Source: a virus
Virus record (IMG/VR): IMGVR_UViG_3300025577_000001
Span: 5,129 to 69,128 of that record
DNA: 64,000 nucleotides
Direction: 5' to 3' (one strand)
Below, piece after piece: positions 15,967 through 49,412 of the stretch. How positions within the stretch are numbered: position 1 is the first letter of the stretch; each line of letters opens with the position of its first letter. Position numbers and translations under genes: made by a program. The notes under the pieces were generated by a model. It saw only the letters and a list, made by a program, of their open reading frames with translations, was not told where the DNA came from and made no database searches.

Positions 15967-17010
15967 ATGTCTAAAAACTTGTTTGATTTGTGGGATATTC
16001 CACAGCCCGTGGACGGCGGTGGCGATACCGAAGAGTCAGCGCCGCGCCGCCCAAAAGCGTCGCCTGGGCGCAGCCCTAAACCTAAGTCGTCGAAAGGCGG
16101 CAAAGGAATTAAGGGCATCTGGGCGAATGTTCAAGGCCGAGTAAAGAATGAGACGGCTAGCATTAGCGACGGCATCAGCATAAAGGTGGTGATGGGTCTT
16201 TTTGGCCTGAGCATCCTTTTGCAAGTTGCGGGGCAAATGACCGGCGTCAACTGGCTGCTATCAGTCGGCGACGTCGTGGATTGGTGCGGCACTATTGCGC
16301 TATTGCTTTTCTTGTTCCAATGGGGCAAGCGCAATCTAGGCAGTATGCCCGCCTTCCTTAGCAGTGTTCTAGGCTTCATCGTTCTAGGGATGCTTGTCAT
16401 TCTGTTTTGGCAATCGGCCCACATCTACGCCGACTTGGGCCGCAAGCTGGCAAGTTCTAATGCGGTCAGCGTTGGCAATCTGGGCGCGTCTTATCTTGGC
16501 GATAATCCATTAGGTCGGATGGCCGCTGCATTCTTGATGGTCGTCGCCAGTATGCTGCAATCGCTAAATATGAATTTTTGGGGCCTCTTGTTCGTGCTCC
16601 TATTCTGTGTGATTCAGTTCGCTGAAGTCGCACCGATGATCGTCCGGTCGTCGCCGCTATTCATGGAGAGGCTGATAAAGCAGTTCAATCGATTCAAAAA
16701 GCTCTCGCCCACTGGCCAAGAATCCGAAGCGGTATCAAGGCTTATCGATCAGCACAACGATTATTTTGAATCATTCCTAACTGGCCTTGGCTACGCGCAG
16801 ATTGCGGCATACGCGATTGATGCACTTGTCTGCCTTTACGCCGTGCCGTTGATTAAGCCTGGCACGACGATGATGACGTTTGTCCCTAGCGATATCGCTT
16901 GGCTTGGCATTGTTCGCATCGCCATCACCTTATTCCTGTTCGCTCAAACGACTTGGATTTATATCCAAGTGCGCAAGGCTCACGCTATCTTCTCGGGCCG
17001 CATCGTATAG
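15967..17010 (+). CDS. Polytopic membrane protein
   Basis: About 6-7 hydrophobic segments. Confidence 0.75.
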   Translation: MSKNLFDLWDIPQPVDGGGDTEESAPRRPKASPGRSPKPKSSKGGKGIKGIWANVQGRVKNETASISDGISIKVVMGLFGLSILLQVAGQMTGVNWLLSVGDVVDWCGTIALLLFLFQWGKRNLGSMPAFLSSVLGFIVLGMLVILFWQSAHIYADLGRKLASSNAVSVGNLGASYLGDNPLGRMAAAFLMVVASMLQSLNMNFWGLLFVLLFCVIQFAEVAPMIVRSSPLFMERLIKQFNRFKKLSPTGQESEAVSRLIDQHNDYFESFLTGLGYAQIAAYAIDALVCLYAVPLIKPGTTMMTFVPSDIAWLGIVRIAITLFLFAQTTWIYIQVRKAHAIFSGRIV

Positions 17011-28676: not shown

Positions 28677-30458
28677 CTATGGCGCTAGCCTCGCTTTCTT
28701 GGCTCGGCTGTCCTCGTACCACTCTGCAATAGCTGGCACCCATGCTTTGAAGTGCGGCCAGATAAGTTCACACAATTGCTGACACTCTAGCTGAGCATCC
28801 GCCTTCCATCTCAGATCTAAGAGATGCATTAGCGACCGCGCATTGGCCGACATTACCCAGTGCTGCCGCACGTCGAAAGGAATCAGGCCGCGCGCGTGCT
28901 CCTCGCTGAAGCCATCGTCAATTACGCGCTTACGGTATCGGTGCGCAGATTCAAGGCAATACTCTAAGTCTGAATAACGCTGGGCTTCGCTATAGCTATA
29001 GCGCTTCCCTTCACGATCGCGATAGTCTCCAGCGGGCCGAAGATAAAACACCTCGTCCACTTCCCTAAACCCTTTCGAAACGTCGATAATGCGCTTCCCG
29101 GTATAGCGCCCGGAGTTGTGGACGACTACTCCGGCTGCCACAAAGTTGTGGTGAGGAGATTTCATTACTAGGTCGTATGTTGGCTGAGCGCCAACATACT
29201 CGATTGAGACAATGGCTTTTTGATGGGCACAAAGTGGGTTTTGTTTGCCAGATTTATGATGGCTGATATGGCAGGAAGCGCAAAGCACTTCAAAATTATC
29301 AAAATCAAAAGCTAGGTCAGGCCGCTCTTTCACTGGCTGGATGTGATGGCAATGCAGGTTTTCTGTTTGATGACAGTGATTGCACTCAGCTCCTTTTAAT
29401 TTGAGAATTTCAGCGCGATTGTACTTGAGCCAGTTATAAGCTCTTTTCTCAGGTGCCAAGTTTTTCCATGACGGATGATCTATGCCTGACAAAATTAATC
29501 CATTCTTGACTCGGTGCTCTGTGACAGACTTTGCATGATTGCTGCGCCTGTCTCGTTCGATCTGGCTTAGATTAATAGAGTACTTTAAGCCTTTGTTCCA
29601 TGGCTTTTTATCCCAAGTTAGTTCATGCTTATATGCCCACTTTTTGACGGATTCAGTAGAGCAGCCAGCGATCGCAGCAACGCCTTTAGGTGTTAGCCCA
29701 TTCAAAAAGTGAAATCGCAGCCATTCTTTGTTTTGATACGTTTTGTCCGCATCCTTCAAAGGCTGACCGTTCACCATTACCTTTGAGCCAACGCTGAGCT
29801 GAGCTAGAACCCGCCAACCGTAAGGTGTGTATATTTTGTGATTCTGCGTACATTCAAGCGTCTTCCCGTCTTCTAAAGTCACCTTATAGACAGGATTTAT
29901 TCCGTTGAAAACTACGTCTTCGATATAGTTTGTTGTGAAAGTGTTTGAAGCTTCATTAAGGCTGCGTACTCTCATTTTTCTAAGGCGAGTTTTGCAGTCG
30001 CGCCTGTATTCACCAGGGGCTTCTCCATTCCGACCTTTGATATGACGGGTGCGCACTGCTGCTTCTCCGTTATGCCAAAGGTCATACAAATCACCTATTG
30101 TCTTTTTGAGCTTTTGGGACGTTTGCCCATGCTTGTCAACAAAGGTCACCTCTGTATCGCCTGCTAAACACTGCACGTCAAAAGACAGATGGCGATGGGT
30201 TCGGACTTGCTGCATTGTCGAATGCGGAAACCATCCACAATTCAGTACAATTTGAGGATTTTCAATGCTGCCAAAGTGGCCGCGTCCCCCGCCTAGCAAT
30301 CGCTTGACGGCTATAGCGCCAGCGCGTTCCTCGCTTGGCCACTGCTCGCGCTCATCGAAGACAAAGCCTTCGCTGTAGTCTTGGTGCATCGCCGCGTAAA
30401 TGGTCTGCTGAGGATTTGGGGTCTGGCTGATAACTTCGACTCTAAATCTATTATCCAT
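28677..30458 (-). CDS. thyX: Flavin-dependent thymidylate synthase ThyX with intein
   Basis: GHFGSIE, RTHRHLSFDVQ|SGRYTG ThyX motif split by the intein; EEHARGLIP, HLLDLR...AQLE. Confidence 0.92.
   Translation of the reverse strand: MDNRFRVEVISQTPNPQQTIYAAMHQDYSEGFVFDEREQWPSEERAGAIAVKRLLGGGRGHFGSIENPQIVLNCGWFPHSTMQQVRTHRHLSFDVQCLAGDTEVTFVDKHGQTSQKLKKTIGDLYDLWHNGEAAVRTRHIKGRNGEAPGEYRRDCKTRLRKMRVRSLNEASNTFTTNYIEDVVFNGINPVYKVTLEDGKTLECTQNHKIYTPYGWRVLAQLSVGSKVMVNGQPLKDADKTYQNKEWLRFHFLNGLTPKGVAAIAGCSTESVKKWAYKHELTWDKKPWNKGLKYSINLSQIERDRRSNHAKSVTEHRVKNGLILSGIDHPSWKNLAPEKRAYNWLKYNRAEILKLKGAECNHCHQTENLHCHHIQPVKERPDLAFDFDNFEVLCASCHISHHKSGKQNPLCAHQKAIVSIEYVGAQPTYDLVMKSPHHNFVAAGVVVHNSGRYTGKRIIDVSKGFREVDEVFYLRPAGDYRDREGKRYSYSEAQRYSDLEYCLESAHRYRKRVIDDGFSEEHARGLIPFDVRQHWVMSANARSLMHLLDLRWKADAQLECQQLCELIWPHFKAWVPAIAEWYEDSRAKKARLAP
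29115..30170 (-). mobile_element. Intein (352 aa) carrying an HNH homing endonuclease
   Basis: Starts CLAGDTEV, block B ECTQNHKIYT, ends GVVVHN followed by Ser; internal CNHC...HCHHI...NFEVLCASCHISHH; more AT-rich than the flanks. Confidence 0.92.
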
Positions 30459-30733
30459 TAGTTGATCGCCTCCCATTCTTGAGCGGGCGCAGGCGCTTTC
30501 CAGGGCGTCATGTTATGCGCGATTGGCTTGGGCTCATATCGCTCGTATTGTTTCTCTACGTCCTGCCCTGGCTTCGTATAGGCAATAGACGCAAACGGCA
30601 GCGACAAAGCGGCGCGGTATTCATCATTAAAGAATACGCGGCCTTTAAGCTGCCATAACGGCAGGCTATAAAACTGCATCTGCCAGCGGCCCCATGCGTA
30701 CTGATCGAATAATTCAAACTTTGAATGTTTCAT
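30458..30733 (-). CDS. Hypothetical protein
   Basis: TAATG coupling to thyX. Confidence 0.55.
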   Translation of the reverse strand: MKHSKFELFDQYAWGRWQMQFYSLPLWQLKGRVFFNDEYRAALSLPFASIAYTKPGQDVEKQYERYEPKPIAHNMTPWKAPAPAQEWEAIN

Positions 30734-44508: not shown

Positions 44509-45369
44509 TTAACCAGCCAATAAGGATAACAACGGTAGCATCGCCGCTTGGTTCTTTTGCGTAGAGCGATCGCATATCCACAGCACCTCAGTGCGGGCAT
44601 TGTCGCAATTCGTCCTATTCTTTGCCACGCTGCAATATGAAGCAATATCAACACGCCGCTGGCAAGATTCCGGCATCACATCACCTTGATCGTAGCAGCT
44701 CAAAACGTAGCTACCTTGAATGCTGTCTAGCTTTCGGCAAAGGTTGCTAAAGTCATTAATTGTATAGCCGCTGTAGTGTTCGCACCGAGTGCCAACATAG
44801 GGCGGATCGCAATAAAACAAAGCGTCGGGCGCGTCCCACCTTTCGATGAAGGACAAGGCGTCTGAATTATCGATGTGAACAGAATTCAGCCGCGCAATGC
44901 TTTCACTAAAGGCGCTTCTCTTGTTGGCCCATATCGCCCCTAGGTTTGCACCTTTTACGGCATAGCCCCAGCTGCCATTCACGCTTTTGGCGAAAGACAT
45001 AGAAATGTTGACGACTAACGCCCATGCCCTTTCTAGATCGCTAGCCGATGCGCCCTTGCATATCTCTACGGCTCGGCCATGCTCTGTCCGGCTATAGGGC
45101 GTTAGCGCTAGCATTTGCTCTAAAGCTGCACCATCTGACCTAGCAACGCGGTAAAGGTTCGTCACTAGGTCGTTAGTATCGTTCAATGCTTCCCTGTAAG
45201 AGTCCCTATTACTGACAATCGGGAGAGGTTTCTTGAACAGCACCGCAGCGCCGCCACAAAACGGCTCTGCGTATATGTTGTGCGGAATCTTTTGCAACTC
45301 TGCAACAATGCGCGATGCCATGCGCTGTTTGCCGCCGTAATAGCTGATTAAAGGCTTAGGTGTTTTCAT
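44509..45369 (-). CDS. Dam-family (D12) DNA adenine methyltransferase
   Basis: YYGGKQ, YAEPFCGG, LND, FYCDPPY. Confidence 0.9.
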   Translation of the reverse strand: MKTPKPLISYYGGKQRMASRIVAELQKIPHNIYAEPFCGGAAVLFKKPLPIVSNRDSYREALNDTNDLVTNLYRVARSDGAALEQMLALTPYSRTEHGRAVEICKGASASDLERAWALVVNISMSFAKSVNGSWGYAVKGANLGAIWANKRSAFSESIARLNSVHIDNSDALSFIERWDAPDALFYCDPPYVGTRCEHYSGYTINDFSNLCRKLDSIQGSYVLSCYDQGDVMPESCQRRVDIASYCSVAKNRTNCDNARTEVLWICDRSTQKNQAAMLPLLSLLAG

Positions 45370-46481: not shown

Positions 46482-47160
46482 GTTTCAATCCCTAAGAGGG
46501 TTTCACTATCGTTGCAGCGAGGTGAGGTTTTTCATTTAAGCGACCTCCATCGAGTTTCAATCCCTAAGAGGCTTTCACTATCGTTGCAGCATTCTTTCCA
46601 CTGGTGGGCATCAAAGGACGCCCTGTTTCAATCCCTAAGAGGCTTTCACTATCGTTGCAGCAGGATTCATGGGCGAGCAATAGCAAAGAGCTAGCCGTTT
46701 CAATCCCTAAGAGGCTTTCACTATCGTTGCAGCGGCCAAGAGGCTTTCGATATCATCGCAGGCGAGAGTTTCAATCCCTAAGAGGCTTTCACTATCGTTG
46801 CAGCGTTTGTCCTTCTGTTTTGTGTGATTCAGTTCGCTGTTTCAATCCCTAAGAGGCTTTCACTATCGTTGCAGCTAGTGTCGAGCCACGATAGCGCGAT
46901 CGCCTTGCAGTTTCAATCCCTAAGAGGCTTTCACTATCGTTGCAGCAATAAGGACAAAAACTAATGACTGACATCACCTACGTTTCAATCCCTAAGAGGC
47001 TTTCACTATCGTTGCAGCGAAGGCAATAGCAGGTAATGATTTTATCGTTTGTGTTTCAATCCCTAAGAGGCTTTCACTATCGTTGCAGCTTTTATTGACC
47101 CAGACCCAAGAACCAACCCAGAGGTTTCAATCCCTAAGAGGCTTTCACTATCGTTGCAGC
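46482..47160 (-). CRISPR. CRISPR array: 10 x 37-bp repeats and 9 spacers of 34-35 bp
   Basis: Plus-strand repeat GTTTCAATCCCTAAGAGGCTTTCACTATCGTTGCAGC starts at 46482 (one mismatch), 46554, 46625, 46697, 46768, 46839, 46910, 46982, 47053, 47124. The variant repeat on the left and the leader on the right imply minus-strand transcription (repeat ending ATTGAAAC). Confidence 0.98.
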
Positions 47161-47302
47161 GGCGGCACTCTAGAAGCCAACACTTTCAGGCGCTTCAGAG
47201 GCCACTTGCGCGAATCTCTAAAAAACTAAATAATGAATGCCTGAAAGGATTGATCTTTCGTGCCCTATGAAGCGTACAGCCAGCAGCTCGCGCATTTTCA
47301 AG
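47161..47302 (-). promoter_or_regulatory. CRISPR leader
   Basis: Non-coding; minus strand ...TTCGCGCAAGTGGCCTCTGAAG...GAGTGCCGCC resembles cyanobacterial array leaders; CCTTGAAAA upstream. Confidence 0.6.
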
Positions 47303-47470
47303 GTGAAGCCCCAAGAAAGGGGGGATTGTGATCCATATTTCCGGATCATCTATTCAAGTACTCGCGTGACTTGATTGCTTCCTTGATGTACGCTTGCACG
47401 TCATCTCTCCTCTCGGATCTCAAAGCCATACGGATATAGCGCCGTTGCCGCCCAAACTGCGGTTTCGCTT
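47303..47470 (-). ncRNA. tracrRNA candidate
   Basis: TATAAT at 47482-47477, four consecutive hairpins, then CAATCCC...GGCTTCAC complementary to the repeat segment GTGAAAGCC...GGGATTG. Confidence 0.55.
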
Positions 47471-47676
47471 GGATTCATTATAGCTTACTTTATTCCATTC
47501 TTGTTATTTTCGATTCTGACACCCATATCATTGCAGGCAGCATTACAGGCAAGCTGTGCGCCCCAACATTTACGAAGCCAGGGCATCCATAGTACCCTGG
47601 CAGGGAAATCAAAACTTTGTCGCCAGCCTGTTTCCAGACTTGGTAGTAATGACATTGGTATCGACACCACGAAAAA

Positions 47677-49344
47677 TTAATCGCCACGTTTTTTCATGTT
47701 CTTCGCCGCGTTCACATCGGCATTTTGCTTCACCAAGTGTAGGCCACATTTACTATTCAGGCAAAAGAAAGTGTCTTGCTTAGCGCGATCGCCTTTCTCG
47801 CTGCAAGCATGGCATTCTTTGGACGAGTTACGCGGCTCAATATCGGCCCAGTTCTTGCGAGCACCGCTCAGGCGCTGCTTTGTTTTGGCCTTAAGATCGC
47901 CCATGCAAGTATGCCGCATCGCGTAGTTTAGCCCGGTCTTAGCTGCTGCTCCGTTTGACTCCCAATGCGAGCCGTCTGCTGATAGCTTAGGGTCTACGCC
48001 TTTACTGAGATTGCCAAGCTGTGTATTTTCCCAATACAGAGCATCATAGGTGCGGGCCAATCGGGTAGCGAGCTTATGATTGAACATGTTGCTAGAGTTC
48101 GCGCCGCGTTCGTGGAGCCGCGCGATTTTACGTTGCAACTTAGCTTCGTTCTTTGTGGCCTCACGCTTGCCCATGCGCCACGATAAGCCAAGCCTTCGAT
48201 CATTGGCTTCCCTCATCCCATCAAGCCTAGATTGCCATGACTCGATATGTACAGCAATCCGTCCGCGTGAAGCATTCGGGTTAAACAAAGCGCCATTGTC
48301 TAGCGCAACAATCTTCTTAACGCCTGGATCTACGCCTGCTCTATGGCCAGTCAGCTTTGATGCAGGAGATGCTAGGTATTGGTCAATCTCAATTTGCATT
48401 TTTAGCTCATCGAGTGCAGACACTGCTGCTTGATAATCTGCTGATGCGTCTAAGGCTGCTTGCTGAGCGGCTTTCCCTTTGATGCCTTTCTTGGCGGCTG
48501 CACTAGCTTTGTTGCGTCGGGAGGTCAGCACGGGCTTTAGCGCTTCTGATGGCGTTGCTGCCGAGATACACAGATACCAGCCGCTAGGTTTTTCGGCAAG
48601 CTTAGATGAACGCGGAACAAAGTTGCCTAACCGCTTTTGCCAAGAACGATCGCACGGAGTTACCTGCATCCCGCACATCTCAAAGATGCCGTTTTTTAAC
48701 TTTGGCGGCGTCTGCGCATTGCTGAAAGTAGAAACGGTATTCTGTCGCCCGTCCTTGAACCTTGGTTGATGCCGCGCAGTCAGCTTTGCGTCCTTGTACG
48801 CGTCCCACGAAGCCGCAAAATCTTTGATTAATCCGCCAATGAAATCAGAATGACAGCTTATTTCGCTGAGTCCTTCAGCCGCTCTCACAGACGACAGCCA
48901 GCCTTTTGCGTCAAGATTTTCGGGGCGCTTTAGTTCTCTGCCGTGGAGATTAATGTATTCATGAGCTACGGGCGCGATCGCTTCATAAGGCCGATCGCCT
49001 TTTACAAGCTTCGAGCCATGCTTAAAGCGTTCTTCCCAGGTGCCGCCTTTATTGATGCGATAGGCCAGCGTAACAGTTTCATCTTTCGCCCAATATGGCC
49101 CACCTGTAGCAATCTGGCAGGCTGCGCCAGACCATGCATTTCGCCTGTTAAACCTAAGCGGTGCCAGAATGCAGCCATCAAGGCTTACGCCATTCTTTGC
49201 GGCCCACTTGTACCAGTCAAGACAATGATTGTGCAGTGCGACCCATCGGCATTTGTTCCACAGCCATTCAAGCTCTTGTCGCTGGCCAGGGATTTGGCGC
49301 AGTGATTCAGCATCTAGAGCGACTTTTATTTTTACAGTTTTCAC
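47677..49344 (-). CDS. Type V CRISPR effector, TnpB-derived, C2c8 (V-U2)-like, ~555 aa
   Basis: RuvC-I GVDPG, RuvC-II YWENTQ, Zn finger CHAC...CLNSKC, RuvC-III NADVNAAKN, HQPRFK; adjacent co-oriented array; probable GTG start at 49344 after an AAGGA RBS. Confidence 0.85.
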   Translation of the reverse strand: MKTVKIKVALDAESLRQIPGQRQELEWLWNKCRWVALHNHCLDWYKWAAKNGVSLDGCILAPLRFNRRNAWSGAACQIATGGPYWAKDETVTLAYRINKGGTWEERFKHGSKLVKGDRPYEAIAPVAHEYINLHGRELKRPENLDAKGWLSSVRAAEGLSEISCHSDFIGGLIKDFAASWDAYKDAKLTARHQPRFKDGRQNTVSTFSNAQTPPKLKNGIFEMCGMQVTPCDRSWQKRLGNFVPRSSKLAEKPSGWYLCISAATPSEALKPVLTSRRNKASAAAKKGIKGKAAQQAALDASADYQAAVSALDELKMQIEIDQYLASPASKLTGHRAGVDPGVKKIVALDNGALFNPNASRGRIAVHIESWQSRLDGMREANDRRLGLSWRMGKREATKNEAKLQRKIARLHERGANSSNMFNHKLATRLARTYDALYWENTQLGNLSKGVDPKLSADGSHWESNGAAAKTGLNYAMRHTCMGDLKAKTKQRLSGARKNWADIEPRNSSKECHACSEKGDRAKQDTFFCLNSKCGLHLVKQNADVNAAKNMKKRGD

Positions 49345-49374
49345 AGCTCTAGGTTCCTTTTCGTTTGTGTGAAT

Positions 49375-49412
49375 AGCATAGCAAAACATAGCGCGGTCTG
49401 TAAACGAGTTTT
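49375..49412 (-). promoter_or_regulatory. Promoter of the cas gene (AAAACTCGTTTACA box)
   Basis: TTTACA-18nt-TATGCT on the minus strand. Confidence 0.6.

Follow-up and report, generated by a model that had tools for sequence, protein, structure and literature searches.

A compact CRISPR-Cas cassette in the tail region of a complete phage genome

[quoted passage not shown] The virus record comprises 69,128 nt, with direct terminal repeats (127 nt, G+C 51% in our own check of the record) and a CheckV completeness of 100%. The window is the whole stretch of DNA that was analysed, 64,000 nt corresponding to bases 5129-69128 of the record, and positions refer to it unless a relative is named. Among tail and lysis genes (tail sheath, baseplate wedge, tail collar and a peptidase/lysozyme pair) lies an effector gene that we assign to cas12p, followed by the homologue of a trans-activating CRISPR RNA (tracrRNA), candidate anti-repeats, a leader of host type and a repeat-spacer array. 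All of them share one orientation, on the minus strand, and the relatives of the locus repeat the same layout. Its features are:

49375-49404, minus: promoter-like site upstream of the GTG start (TTTACA, 18 nt, TATGCT, with TG before the second hexamer; consensus match only)
47677-49344, minus: cas12p gene, 555 amino acids (aa) from GTG 49344 (match to PDB 9jfs_A, family alignment, Foldseek)
47483-47676, minus: extra non-coding DNA of about 190 nt, with no counterpart in relatives and no covariance-model match
47477-47482, minus: TATAAT, a -10-like box read from the sequence, 13 nt upstream of the conserved tracrRNA 5' motif
47321-47463, minus: tracrRNA core scaffold, starting with ACCGCAGUUUGGGCGG (covariance model R1)
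47289-47329, minus: candidate anti-repeat a, directly after the last conserved hairpin, as in relatives (-25.7 kcal/mol)
47220-47254, minus: candidate anti-repeat b (47254-47225), running into a T-run (47225-47220; -26.6 kcal/mol, 0 of 300 shuffles as good)
47161-47216, minus: CRISPR leader of host type, 56 nt, starting with GATTCGCGCA and ending with GCCGCC beside repeat 1 (consensus match)
46482-47160, minus: CRISPR array, 10 repeats of 37 nt and 9 spacers (repeat search, whole-record count)
47123-47090, 47052-47019, 46981-46947, 46909-46876 and 46838-46805, minus: spacers S1 to S5
46767-46734, 46696-46662, 46624-46591 and 46553-46519, minus: spacers S6 to S9

From its first ATG, the open reading frame (ORF) of the effector runs from 49389 to 47677 on the minus strand and encodes 570 aa; residue numbers below follow this longer form. 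The true start is most likely the GTG at 49344 (residue 16), because all 26 aligned relatives start there, because residues 1-13 of the longer form have a predicted local distance difference test (pLDDT) score below 50, and because the promoter-like site at 49404-49375 falls inside the ATG extension. Five such promoter-like sites occur in the region, with 3.5 expected from shuffles. The RuvC motifs GVDPG, YWEN and NADVNAA are all present; their acidic residues D354, E454 and D558, and the zinc-finger cysteines C526, C529, C543 and C548 (CxxC...CxxxxC), are invariant in 27 of 27 aligned relatives.

The repeats of the array follow each other at a start-to-start spacing of 71-72 nt. Each repeat starts with GCTGCAAC and ends with ATTGAAAC on the minus strand, and the 36-nt repeat core occurs nine times exactly and once with one mismatch in the whole 69,128-nt record (reversed-pattern control, 0). 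Nine repeats are identical, and the leader-distal one (46518-46482), farthest from the gene, alone carries one change. The nine spacers, of 34-35 nt, share no sequence with one another. Rfam recognised the repeats only as CRISPR-DR60, at 26 bits and below the threshold of 45.

Profiles of Cas1, Cas2, Cas4 and Cas6 each gave no match in the complete virus record, nor did a Y1 transposase profile; serine-recombinase TnpA and insertion sequence (IS) ends were not searched for. An earlier note on this DNA, made from the letters alone, had described a phage-borne, compact TnpB-derived type V locus in the tail region, with a protein of about 555 aa carrying the RuvC acidic residues and a zinc finger, and with ten near-identical 37-bp repeats, nine unique co-oriented spacers and no cas1, cas2 or cas4. 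All of this agrees with our results. The note had also reported no tnpA and no IS end, which holds as far as the Y1 transposase is concerned.

The effector belongs to a second branch of the Cas12p family

By sequence and predicted fold, the window protein is a Cas12p, the effector of type V-P ('Cas12 hacker'), and not a C2c8 protein. This assignment follows from searches against solved structures. Residues 16-569 matched PDB 9jfs_A ('Cas12p') with an E-value of 3.2e-114 (phmmer), and a profile of 27 relatives matched the same chain with 4.6e-287. Using an AlphaFold model of the window protein (pLDDT 85.7, predicted template modelling (TM) score 0.75), Foldseek ranked 9jg3_A and 9jfs_A first (TM 0.74/0.73 and 0.70/0.75), followed by a TnpB (0.47/0.67); TnpB and Cas12f proteins reached 0.4-0.47 normalised to the query. 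One viral locus among the relatives (L014) encodes a protein whose residues 1-613 are identical to residues 129-741 of the PDB chain, so the natural locus of the characterised enzyme can be compared directly with the window. The window protein is 37% identical to the L014 protein over 617 columns, and is without Cas12p-1 residues 51-102 (52 aa).

The family was described in a preprint (10.1101/2025.01.20.633832; PDB 9JFS/9JG3), with a journal version cited in PMC13728456 (Nat Microbiol 2026, 11:81-93). The accessible part of the preprint presents Cas12p as a phage-derived family of 500-700 aa, with a 185-nt tracrRNA and 37-nt repeats, in which tracrRNA nt 7-10 form a pseudoknot with the final AAAC of the repeat. 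It reports a GTN protospacer adjacent motif (PAM) for two tested relatives, staggered DNA cleavage, and near inactivity unless host thioredoxin is bound at a pocket that includes Cys127. It also lists 12 proteins from metagenomes, of which 11 share more than 70% identity, without settling their hosts; the window protein or a near relative may be among them.

The likeness to the published system covers full-length homology, the same fold, the RuvC triad and zinc finger, the conserved cysteine with most residues of the predicted thioredoxin pocket, and the order of gene, tracrRNA and 37-nt-repeat array ending in AAAC, with GUUU at nt 7-10 of the scaffold. Like the published loci, the window locus is phage-borne, adjoins tail genes and lacks adaptation genes. 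It differs in that its protein, at 37% identity, belongs to the other main branch of the family, and in that its tracrRNA core has larger insertions, is preceded by 190 extra nt and is followed by two anti-repeat candidates.

The earlier note had labelled the system C2c8/V-U2-like, and proposed profile and phylogeny comparisons; these group the protein with Cas12p, not with C2c8 or IS-associated TnpB. C2c8 (NF038192) is indeed the best NCBIfam model for the RuvC half of the protein, and the V-U2 system of cyanophage vB_AphaS-CL131 resembles the window locus, as far as its description goes (PMC6293099), in its small TnpB-derived effector, its array of about ten spacers, its cyanophage carrier and the lack of other cas genes. 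One cyanophage carrying a small type V system has been known since 2018 (PMC6293099). However, the C2c8 model matched only residues 345-532, with 132.4 bits against a cut-off of 350, while it gave 450.8 bits to the V-U2 protein of CL131 and 168-190 bits to six other members of the window protein's family. The CL131 protein has 466 aa, its repeat is unrelated to that of the window, the tracrRNA model finds nothing in its locus (L011), and C2c8 rows lie outside the family in a quick tree. We therefore rejected the C2c8/V-U2 identity.

Two other systems invite comparison. Cas12k, the type V-K effector of cyanobacterial CRISPR-associated transposons, likewise occurs in cyanobacteria, and its loci have 37-nt repeats with the same ends and, between gene and array, a long tracrRNA; it also has the GTN PAM of the two tested Cas12p proteins, and type I-D adaptation may be shared, according to two preprints (10.1101/2021.02.06.429022; 10.1101/2025.01.20.633832). 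In contrast to the window protein, whose RuvC site is intact and which has no transposition genes beside it, Cas12k lacks nuclease activity and acts together with Tn7 proteins, and it resembles the window protein only weakly in fold (TM 0.22-0.24). The TnpB proteins of IS200/605 elements share the ancestral RuvC/zinc-finger core and a scaffold RNA 3' of the gene that forms a pseudoknot to the guide-adjacent segment. The window locus differs in having no Y1 TnpA, in a guide that would come from a CRISPR array through a separate tracrRNA, and in a protein with an added recognition (REC) and predicted thioredoxin-binding region. Pfam recognises only TnpB-type C-terminal domains in it (OrfB_IS605, E 2.3e-7), and TnpB models stay below their cut-offs (IS200_TnpB, 41.5 versus 425 bits; guided_TnpB, 70 versus 100).

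The closest relatives (P0002-P0014) are 50-66% identical to the window protein. A word-limited search returned relatives in 33 clusters (90% identity), and when 1.84 billion representatives were searched exhaustively with a profile, 93 proteins were returned at E 1e-30 or below; the first 25 or so of these also cover the N-terminal half. Among the matches listed by a metagenome scan with the family alignment, one was a full-length relative (L089, 37%) and 79 were TnpB-like half matches. The quick tree (48 rows, Shimodaira-Hasegawa-like approximate likelihood ratio support, midpoint root) took in 10 full-length-looking and 4 outgroup rows from 150 listed representatives; both the tree and its alignment (A1) leave out the partial proteins P0007, P0015, P0027, P0028, P0030 and P0033. 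In it, the window protein falls in a clade of six (support 99) within a 'short' branch of 17 rows (support 86), while the solved Cas12p and a Cylindrospermopsis phage clade (support 100) fall in a 'long' branch of 25 rows (support 93).

The cassette is kept as a unit. Nine of the 12 full-length relatives on viral contigs have an array with 37-nt repeats 285-336 nt after the stop codon; one further contig ends 246 nt after the gene, and two have no array within 4 kb. The repeats of these arrays differ in the middle, and begin with CTTGCA or similar and end with TTGAAAC. In seven relatives, the genes up to 4 kb from the cassette are not similar to any ORF of the window phage, which suggests that the cassette moves between unrelated phages or sits in a fast-changing region.

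A tracrRNA homologue and a host-type leader separate the gene from the array

The stop codon and the first repeat of the window locus are 516 nt apart, compared with 285-336 nt in the nine relatives, and no convincing ORF lies between them. The earlier note had described this region as about 515 bp of structured non-coding DNA; the length was right, but the tracrRNA and the leader had been missed. In the relatives with an array, a promoter (TTGACA-N17-TAATAT) abuts the end of the gene and is followed by ACCGCAGTTTGG and a five-hairpin scaffold, whose RNAalifold consensus from seven distinct RNAs contains 31 pairs, eight of them with compensatory changes. A covariance model (R1) was built from these seven RNAs, including that of the solved protein's locus and leaving the window out. 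It found a single match in the 64-kb window, at 47463-47321 on the minus strand (54.7 bits, E 6e-13 to 1e-12), which covers the whole model (positions 1-121) and begins 213 nt downstream of the stop codon. The 11-mer 5' motif of the tracrRNA occurs once in the window.

Counted from the conserved A, nt 7-10 of the tracrRNA homologue read GUUU (47457-47454), as published, and the repeat ends with GAAAC; the two can pair, judging from their letters, as a GUUU:AAAC pseudoknot. The anti-repeat duplex energies given above compare with -44.5 and -34.4 kcal/mol in two relatives (L019 and L021). The predicted tracrRNA would be about 244 nt long, with its 3' end likely at the T-run after anti-repeat b. 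The TATAAT box at 47477-47482 lacks a good -35 hexamer and was not reported by the promoter scan. The additional stretch at 47483-47676 has a hairpin (CCAGGG...CCCTGG), and one of its segments could form pairs with the repeat at -25.8 kcal/mol, a value given without shuffle comparison.

The leader preceding the array is probably homologous to those of cyanobacterial hosts. It is identical to the consensus of 20 cyanobacterial host leaders at 32 of 60 positions, while 20,000 random 60-mers of the window reach at most 29. Phage and host leaders have in common the GATTCGCGCA start, a 10-mer unique in the window, and a GCC(C/G)GCC end.

Other guide RNA arrangements were observed in the relatives. 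The cultured Cylindrospermopsis phages CrV-01T and Cr-LKS4 encode a 668-aa Cas12p homologue and have no CRISPR array; upstream of it, on the same strand, each carries two tracrRNA-like scaffolds with their own promoters (E 3e-17 to 3e-11). In their loop, GUUC takes the place of GUUU, and one scaffold is followed by ATTGAAC and a unique GGGAAC-rich sequence. These scaffolds may be natural single-guide units resembling omega-RNA. Two IMG/VR relatives have two to four such scaffolds on both strands. In L013 and L023, a second module of tracrRNA and array lies upstream of cas12p on the opposite strand, with a different repeat ending in GGAAAC. In L014, a second array of 28 copies of an unrelated repeat directly follows the first, beside a second TnpB-like ORF, whose identity is 29% over 126 aa and which the end of the locus truncates. 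The positions within these loci are:

L009, 2798-2912 and 3371-3488: tracrRNA-like scaffolds (covariance model)
L010, 3009-3126 and 3371-3488: tracrRNA-like scaffolds (covariance model)
L016 and L017: several tracrRNA-like scaffolds each (covariance model)
L013, 794-998, minus: second tracrRNA, with array at 2-772
L023, 349-553, minus: second tracrRNA, with array at 19-270
L014, 6930-8928 and 8899-9675, minus: second array and TnpB-like ORF

Repeat and leader link the system to cyanobacterial hosts

The earlier note had likened the end of the repeat to cyanobacterial host repeats, and a scan of host genomes bears this out. A 22-nt repeat pattern had no match in genome contigs. With the last 17 nt of the repeat, searched in one genome per species, we found 89 stretches, of which 36 had at least three copies; by record title, 35 of these 36 arrays are cyanobacterial (Phormidesmis, Leptolyngbya, Pseudanabaena, Oscillatoria, Rivularia, Prochlorothrix, Lyngbya and unnamed metagenome-assembled genomes) and one belongs to a metagenome-assembled genome of Gemmatimonadetes. 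Their repeats are identical to the phage repeat at 22-30 of 37 positions. Among the few arrays with annotated flanks, one adjoins Cas1 and Cas4 and one adjoins Cas6.

Further results point in the same direction. The octamer GCGATCGC, which marks cyanobacteria, is present in 13 copies, compared with 3.8 ± 2.0 in shuffles, and one copy lies inside spacer S4. Two relatives carry the source names 'Cyanobacteriota' and 'Nostocaceae', and full-length homologues are found in the two cultured Cylindrospermopsis phages. We tie the family to cyanobacteria because of the repeat, the leader, the GCGATCGC excess, these source names and these phage homologues. The word 'cyanobacteria' does not occur in the Cas12p preprint (10.1101/2025.01.20.633832). 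A comparison of 573 host spacers, from arrays with similar repeats, with the phage genome gave nothing longer than 17 nt and identified no host in this way.

We observed a difference between the repeats in the hairpin of host type. The leader-distal repeat (46518-46482), the oldest one, keeps the CCCT...AGGG hairpin, and the nine identical repeats (for example 47160-47124) read GCCT and have lost one pair of this 4-bp hairpin. Host Cas6 may process repeats with the GCCT change less well.

Systems of type I-D recognise a GTN PAM. The adaptation machinery of type I-D has been proposed, in a Cas12k preprint, to serve cyanobacterial arrays of types I-D, III, V-K and V-U2, which have 37-bp repeats with shared ends (10.1101/2021.02.06.429022). 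New spacers of the phage array are probably acquired by a type I-D-like Cas1-Cas2-Cas4 of the host; reliance on host Cas1-Cas2(-Cas4) fits the leader and repeat of host type.

The predicted thioredoxin pocket is largely conserved

C91 of the window protein aligns with C127 of Cas12p-1, the cysteine that contacts thioredoxin, and both C91 and I93 are invariant in the 27 aligned relatives. Of the 14 contact residues given in the accessible part of the preprint (10.1101/2025.01.20.633832), 12 align with the window protein; L51 and W102 fall in its 52-aa gap. Eight of the aligned contacts are identical (W59, Y60, W62, L70, I74, L78, C91 and I93) and four are changed (V68, C73, A76 and P140).

When residues 16-570 were docked with Nostoc thioredoxin 1, the model scored 0.81, against 0.00 for the best of three controls, a score that speaks for likeness and is no proof of binding, because the Cas12p-TrxA complex has already been solved. 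Among solved complexes, 58 of 80 reach the mark used, as do 2 of 110 mismatched pairs; these counts hold only roughly, as our own alignment was used. Three runs agreed in at least 99% of contacts, with a partner pLDDT of at least 90. The modelled interface includes 10 of the 12 aligned contact residues, together with thioredoxin residues 29-37, which presumably hold the WCGPC motif. A thioredoxin profile found no match in the complete virus record. By analogy with the solved enzyme, docking of host thioredoxin on the C91 pocket is probably required to activate the nuclease.

Near matches to the spacers include the phage's own DNA and co-occurring contigs

One near match of a spacer lies in the phage itself:

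16590-16623, minus: S5-like target, inside a gene for a 347-aa predicted membrane protein (15967-17010, plus)

The membrane-protein gene matched no PHROG family. Spacer S5 is identical to this target at 29 of 34 positions, including the first 18 nt, and all five mismatches (positions 19, 22, 25, 28 and 31) fall on third codon positions, which suggests that the spacer came from a diverged copy of the gene in a related phage. The 5' flank of the target is TTC, one base from GTC, so the phage's own copy would escape cutting if the PAM is GTN. In an 11,434-nt contig whose depth equals that of the phage, the same 35 letters recur with five differences.

In one DNA run (X2), in which the phage reaches a depth of about 42, four spacers have matches in contigs at a depth of about 5, and no repeats flank these matches: S7 and S4 match with two differences each, S6 over 32 of 34 nt, and S1 over all 34 nt. 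Both the S5 pattern and these contigs favour a system that is in active use. Four DNA runs are labelled 'marine metagenome' (2017, four study codes); they may stem from one campaign and may represent the source sample, and we draw no claim on habitat from them. In our reading, the system would be aimed at competing phages and at other mobile DNA found in the same host population, close relatives of the phage among them.

A model for the phage-encoded type V-P system and its alternatives

The locus is very probably a working type V-P CRISPR-Cas12p system of a complete 69-kb tailed virus of cyanobacteria. In our model, the array would be transcribed from the leader side, and the tracrRNA of about 244 nt would pair with each repeat through an anti-repeat and the GUUU:AAAC pseudoknot. 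Cas12p would bind the tracrRNA:crRNA pair (crRNA, CRISPR RNA), with the guide lying 3' of ATTGAAAC, find DNA with a 5' PAM (GTN in two tested relatives) and cut it through the RuvC site, once host thioredoxin docking at the C91 pocket has switched the nuclease on. A type I-D-like Cas1-Cas2-Cas4 of the host would recognise the host-type leader and repeat and insert new spacers.

Several results weigh against this model. The window protein is without residues 51-102 of the characterised enzyme, which include the thioredoxin contacts L51 and W102, and the docking result may be a memory of the solved 9JFS complex. Folding of the 271-nt region 47470-47200 is not better than that of shuffles (z -1.2), and the duplex energy of anti-repeat a is marginal, being equalled by 15 of 300 shuffles. 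The earlier note had proposed a spacer search to derive a PAM; the array gave chance-level matches only (E at least 3) in 50,697 phage records, and its matches among 72,556 plasmids are CRISPR arrays of Pseudanabaena and Leptolyngbya, with no protospacer. IMG/VR scans with S5 (N at wobble positions), with the first 25 nt of S1 and with the first 24 nt of S2 gave no match each. With no database protospacer, a PAM could not be derived. The X2 matches have the 5' flanks GGT (S1), GCT (S6) and C before S4 and S7, none of them GTN; GGT and GCT each differ from GTT at the middle base, in few cases. Such flanks would look like escape variants, and equally like a different PAM. Finally, the sole RNA library with pieces of the locus (X5, a 2024 library) holds only short exact pieces of the ORF (47677-47735 and 48764-48905), which end in adapter-like sequence and, immediately past the stop codon, continue in letters that the window does not have. 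It looks like a cloned gene and gives no evidence of natural transcription; its lack of any coverage of tracrRNA and array proves nothing either way. The window's gene may already have been tested by someone, given this cloned-looking copy.

Alternatively, the array might mainly feed a host class 1 system of type I-D or III, with Cas6 cutting the repeats and host effectors using the phage spacers, and with Cas12p secondary or unrelated. Such a role would suit the last 17 nt of the repeat, including the 8-nt ATTGAAAC handle, and the up to 30 of 37 positions that are common to cyanobacterial arrays, one of which adjoins Cas6, as well as the host-type leader; cyanophage N-1 carries an array without cas genes, according to the accessible part of PMC6293099. 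We nevertheless consider it improbable, although the array may serve both systems. As at the locus of the solved enzyme, gene and array are separated by a tracrRNA homologue, anti-repeats and a pseudoknot partner; the linkage of gene and array is kept in nine of 12 relatives despite their differing repeats; and the nine active repeats are without one pair of the host-type hairpin, which the oldest repeat alone keeps.

It is less probable still that the locus is decaying and that the phage carries it without any interference function left. The lack of exact protospacers in phage records, plasmids and IMG/VR scans, the differences or non-GTN flanks in all same-sample near matches, and the 190-nt insert before the tracrRNA would agree with decay. 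Against it stand nine identical repeats, intact catalytic, zinc-binding and thioredoxin-pocket residues, and a tracrRNA that matches the whole model, and mismatched or PAM-altered targets that coexist with the phage are the expected trace of escape from an active system. Finally, an IS200/605-type TnpB that uses its own omega-RNA for transposon homing, rather than for array-guided defence, beside an unrelated array is hardly credible: Pfam and TnpB models do match the C-terminal half and source annotations do name relatives 'transposase', but the TnpB models score far under their cut-offs, the complete genome has no Y1 transposase, the REC and predicted thioredoxin-binding parts of Cas12p are present in the 555-aa protein, the RNA scaffold starts 213 nt past the stop codon with a -10 box of its own and pairs with the repeat, and the cassette of gene, RNA and array is kept in relatives despite unrelated flanking genes.

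Surroundings of the locus in the virus genome

The phage also encodes a terminase and helicases, and its gene set is that of a contractile-tailed phage. No tRNA genes were found by a tRNA search, and no DNA similar to the 8-kb locus region was found among phage records. Two further features were observed:

44509-45369, minus: DNA methyltransferase with a DPPY motif (PHROG 56, E 1e-44), about 1.1 kb past the array end
28677-30476, minus: ORF of 599 aa with a thymidylate-synthase-like C-terminus (residues 470-589) and an HNH endonuclease segment (306-416)

The 599-aa ORF could be a fusion or an intein-like insertion.

Implications for the Cas12p family and its phages

The window system is a divergent addition to a family published in 2025-2026; the first reading of this DNA had recognised the right kind of system under the wrong label. 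Its suggestion that the system is aimed at competing elements and obtains spacers through host Cas1-Cas2(-Cas4) is most likely right, and fits the host-type leader and repeat, the wobble pattern of S5 and the near matches in X2. The prospect of a compact editing nuclease, also raised there, loses novelty, in that the family already has structures and a PAM; the 555-aa enzyme would be a slightly smaller scaffold for engineering than the solved 613-aa enzyme.

The value of the system lies in its complete genome context, its link to cyanobacterial hosts, its host-type leader and its hints of phage-versus-phage targeting. It adds a complete phage genome and a second, shorter branch to Cas12p, and ties the family to cyanobacteria. 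It also provides material for asking whether thioredoxin dependence extends across the family and which thioredoxin is the natural partner, whether phage arrays borrow host type I-D adaptation through a shared leader, and whether phages turn CRISPR against their own relatives.

Cyanobacterial thioredoxin is kept reduced by photosynthetic electron flow. A bolder idea, possible although we hold it to be rather unlikely, is that the short Cas12p branch is still activated by thioredoxin and that its nuclease is consequently gated by the light and redox state, acting mainly against co-infecting relatives, with survivors changed in PAM or seed. If this is true, a cyanophage CRISPR nuclease would be controlled by the light and redox state of the infected cell, and would serve mainly against co-infecting relatives.

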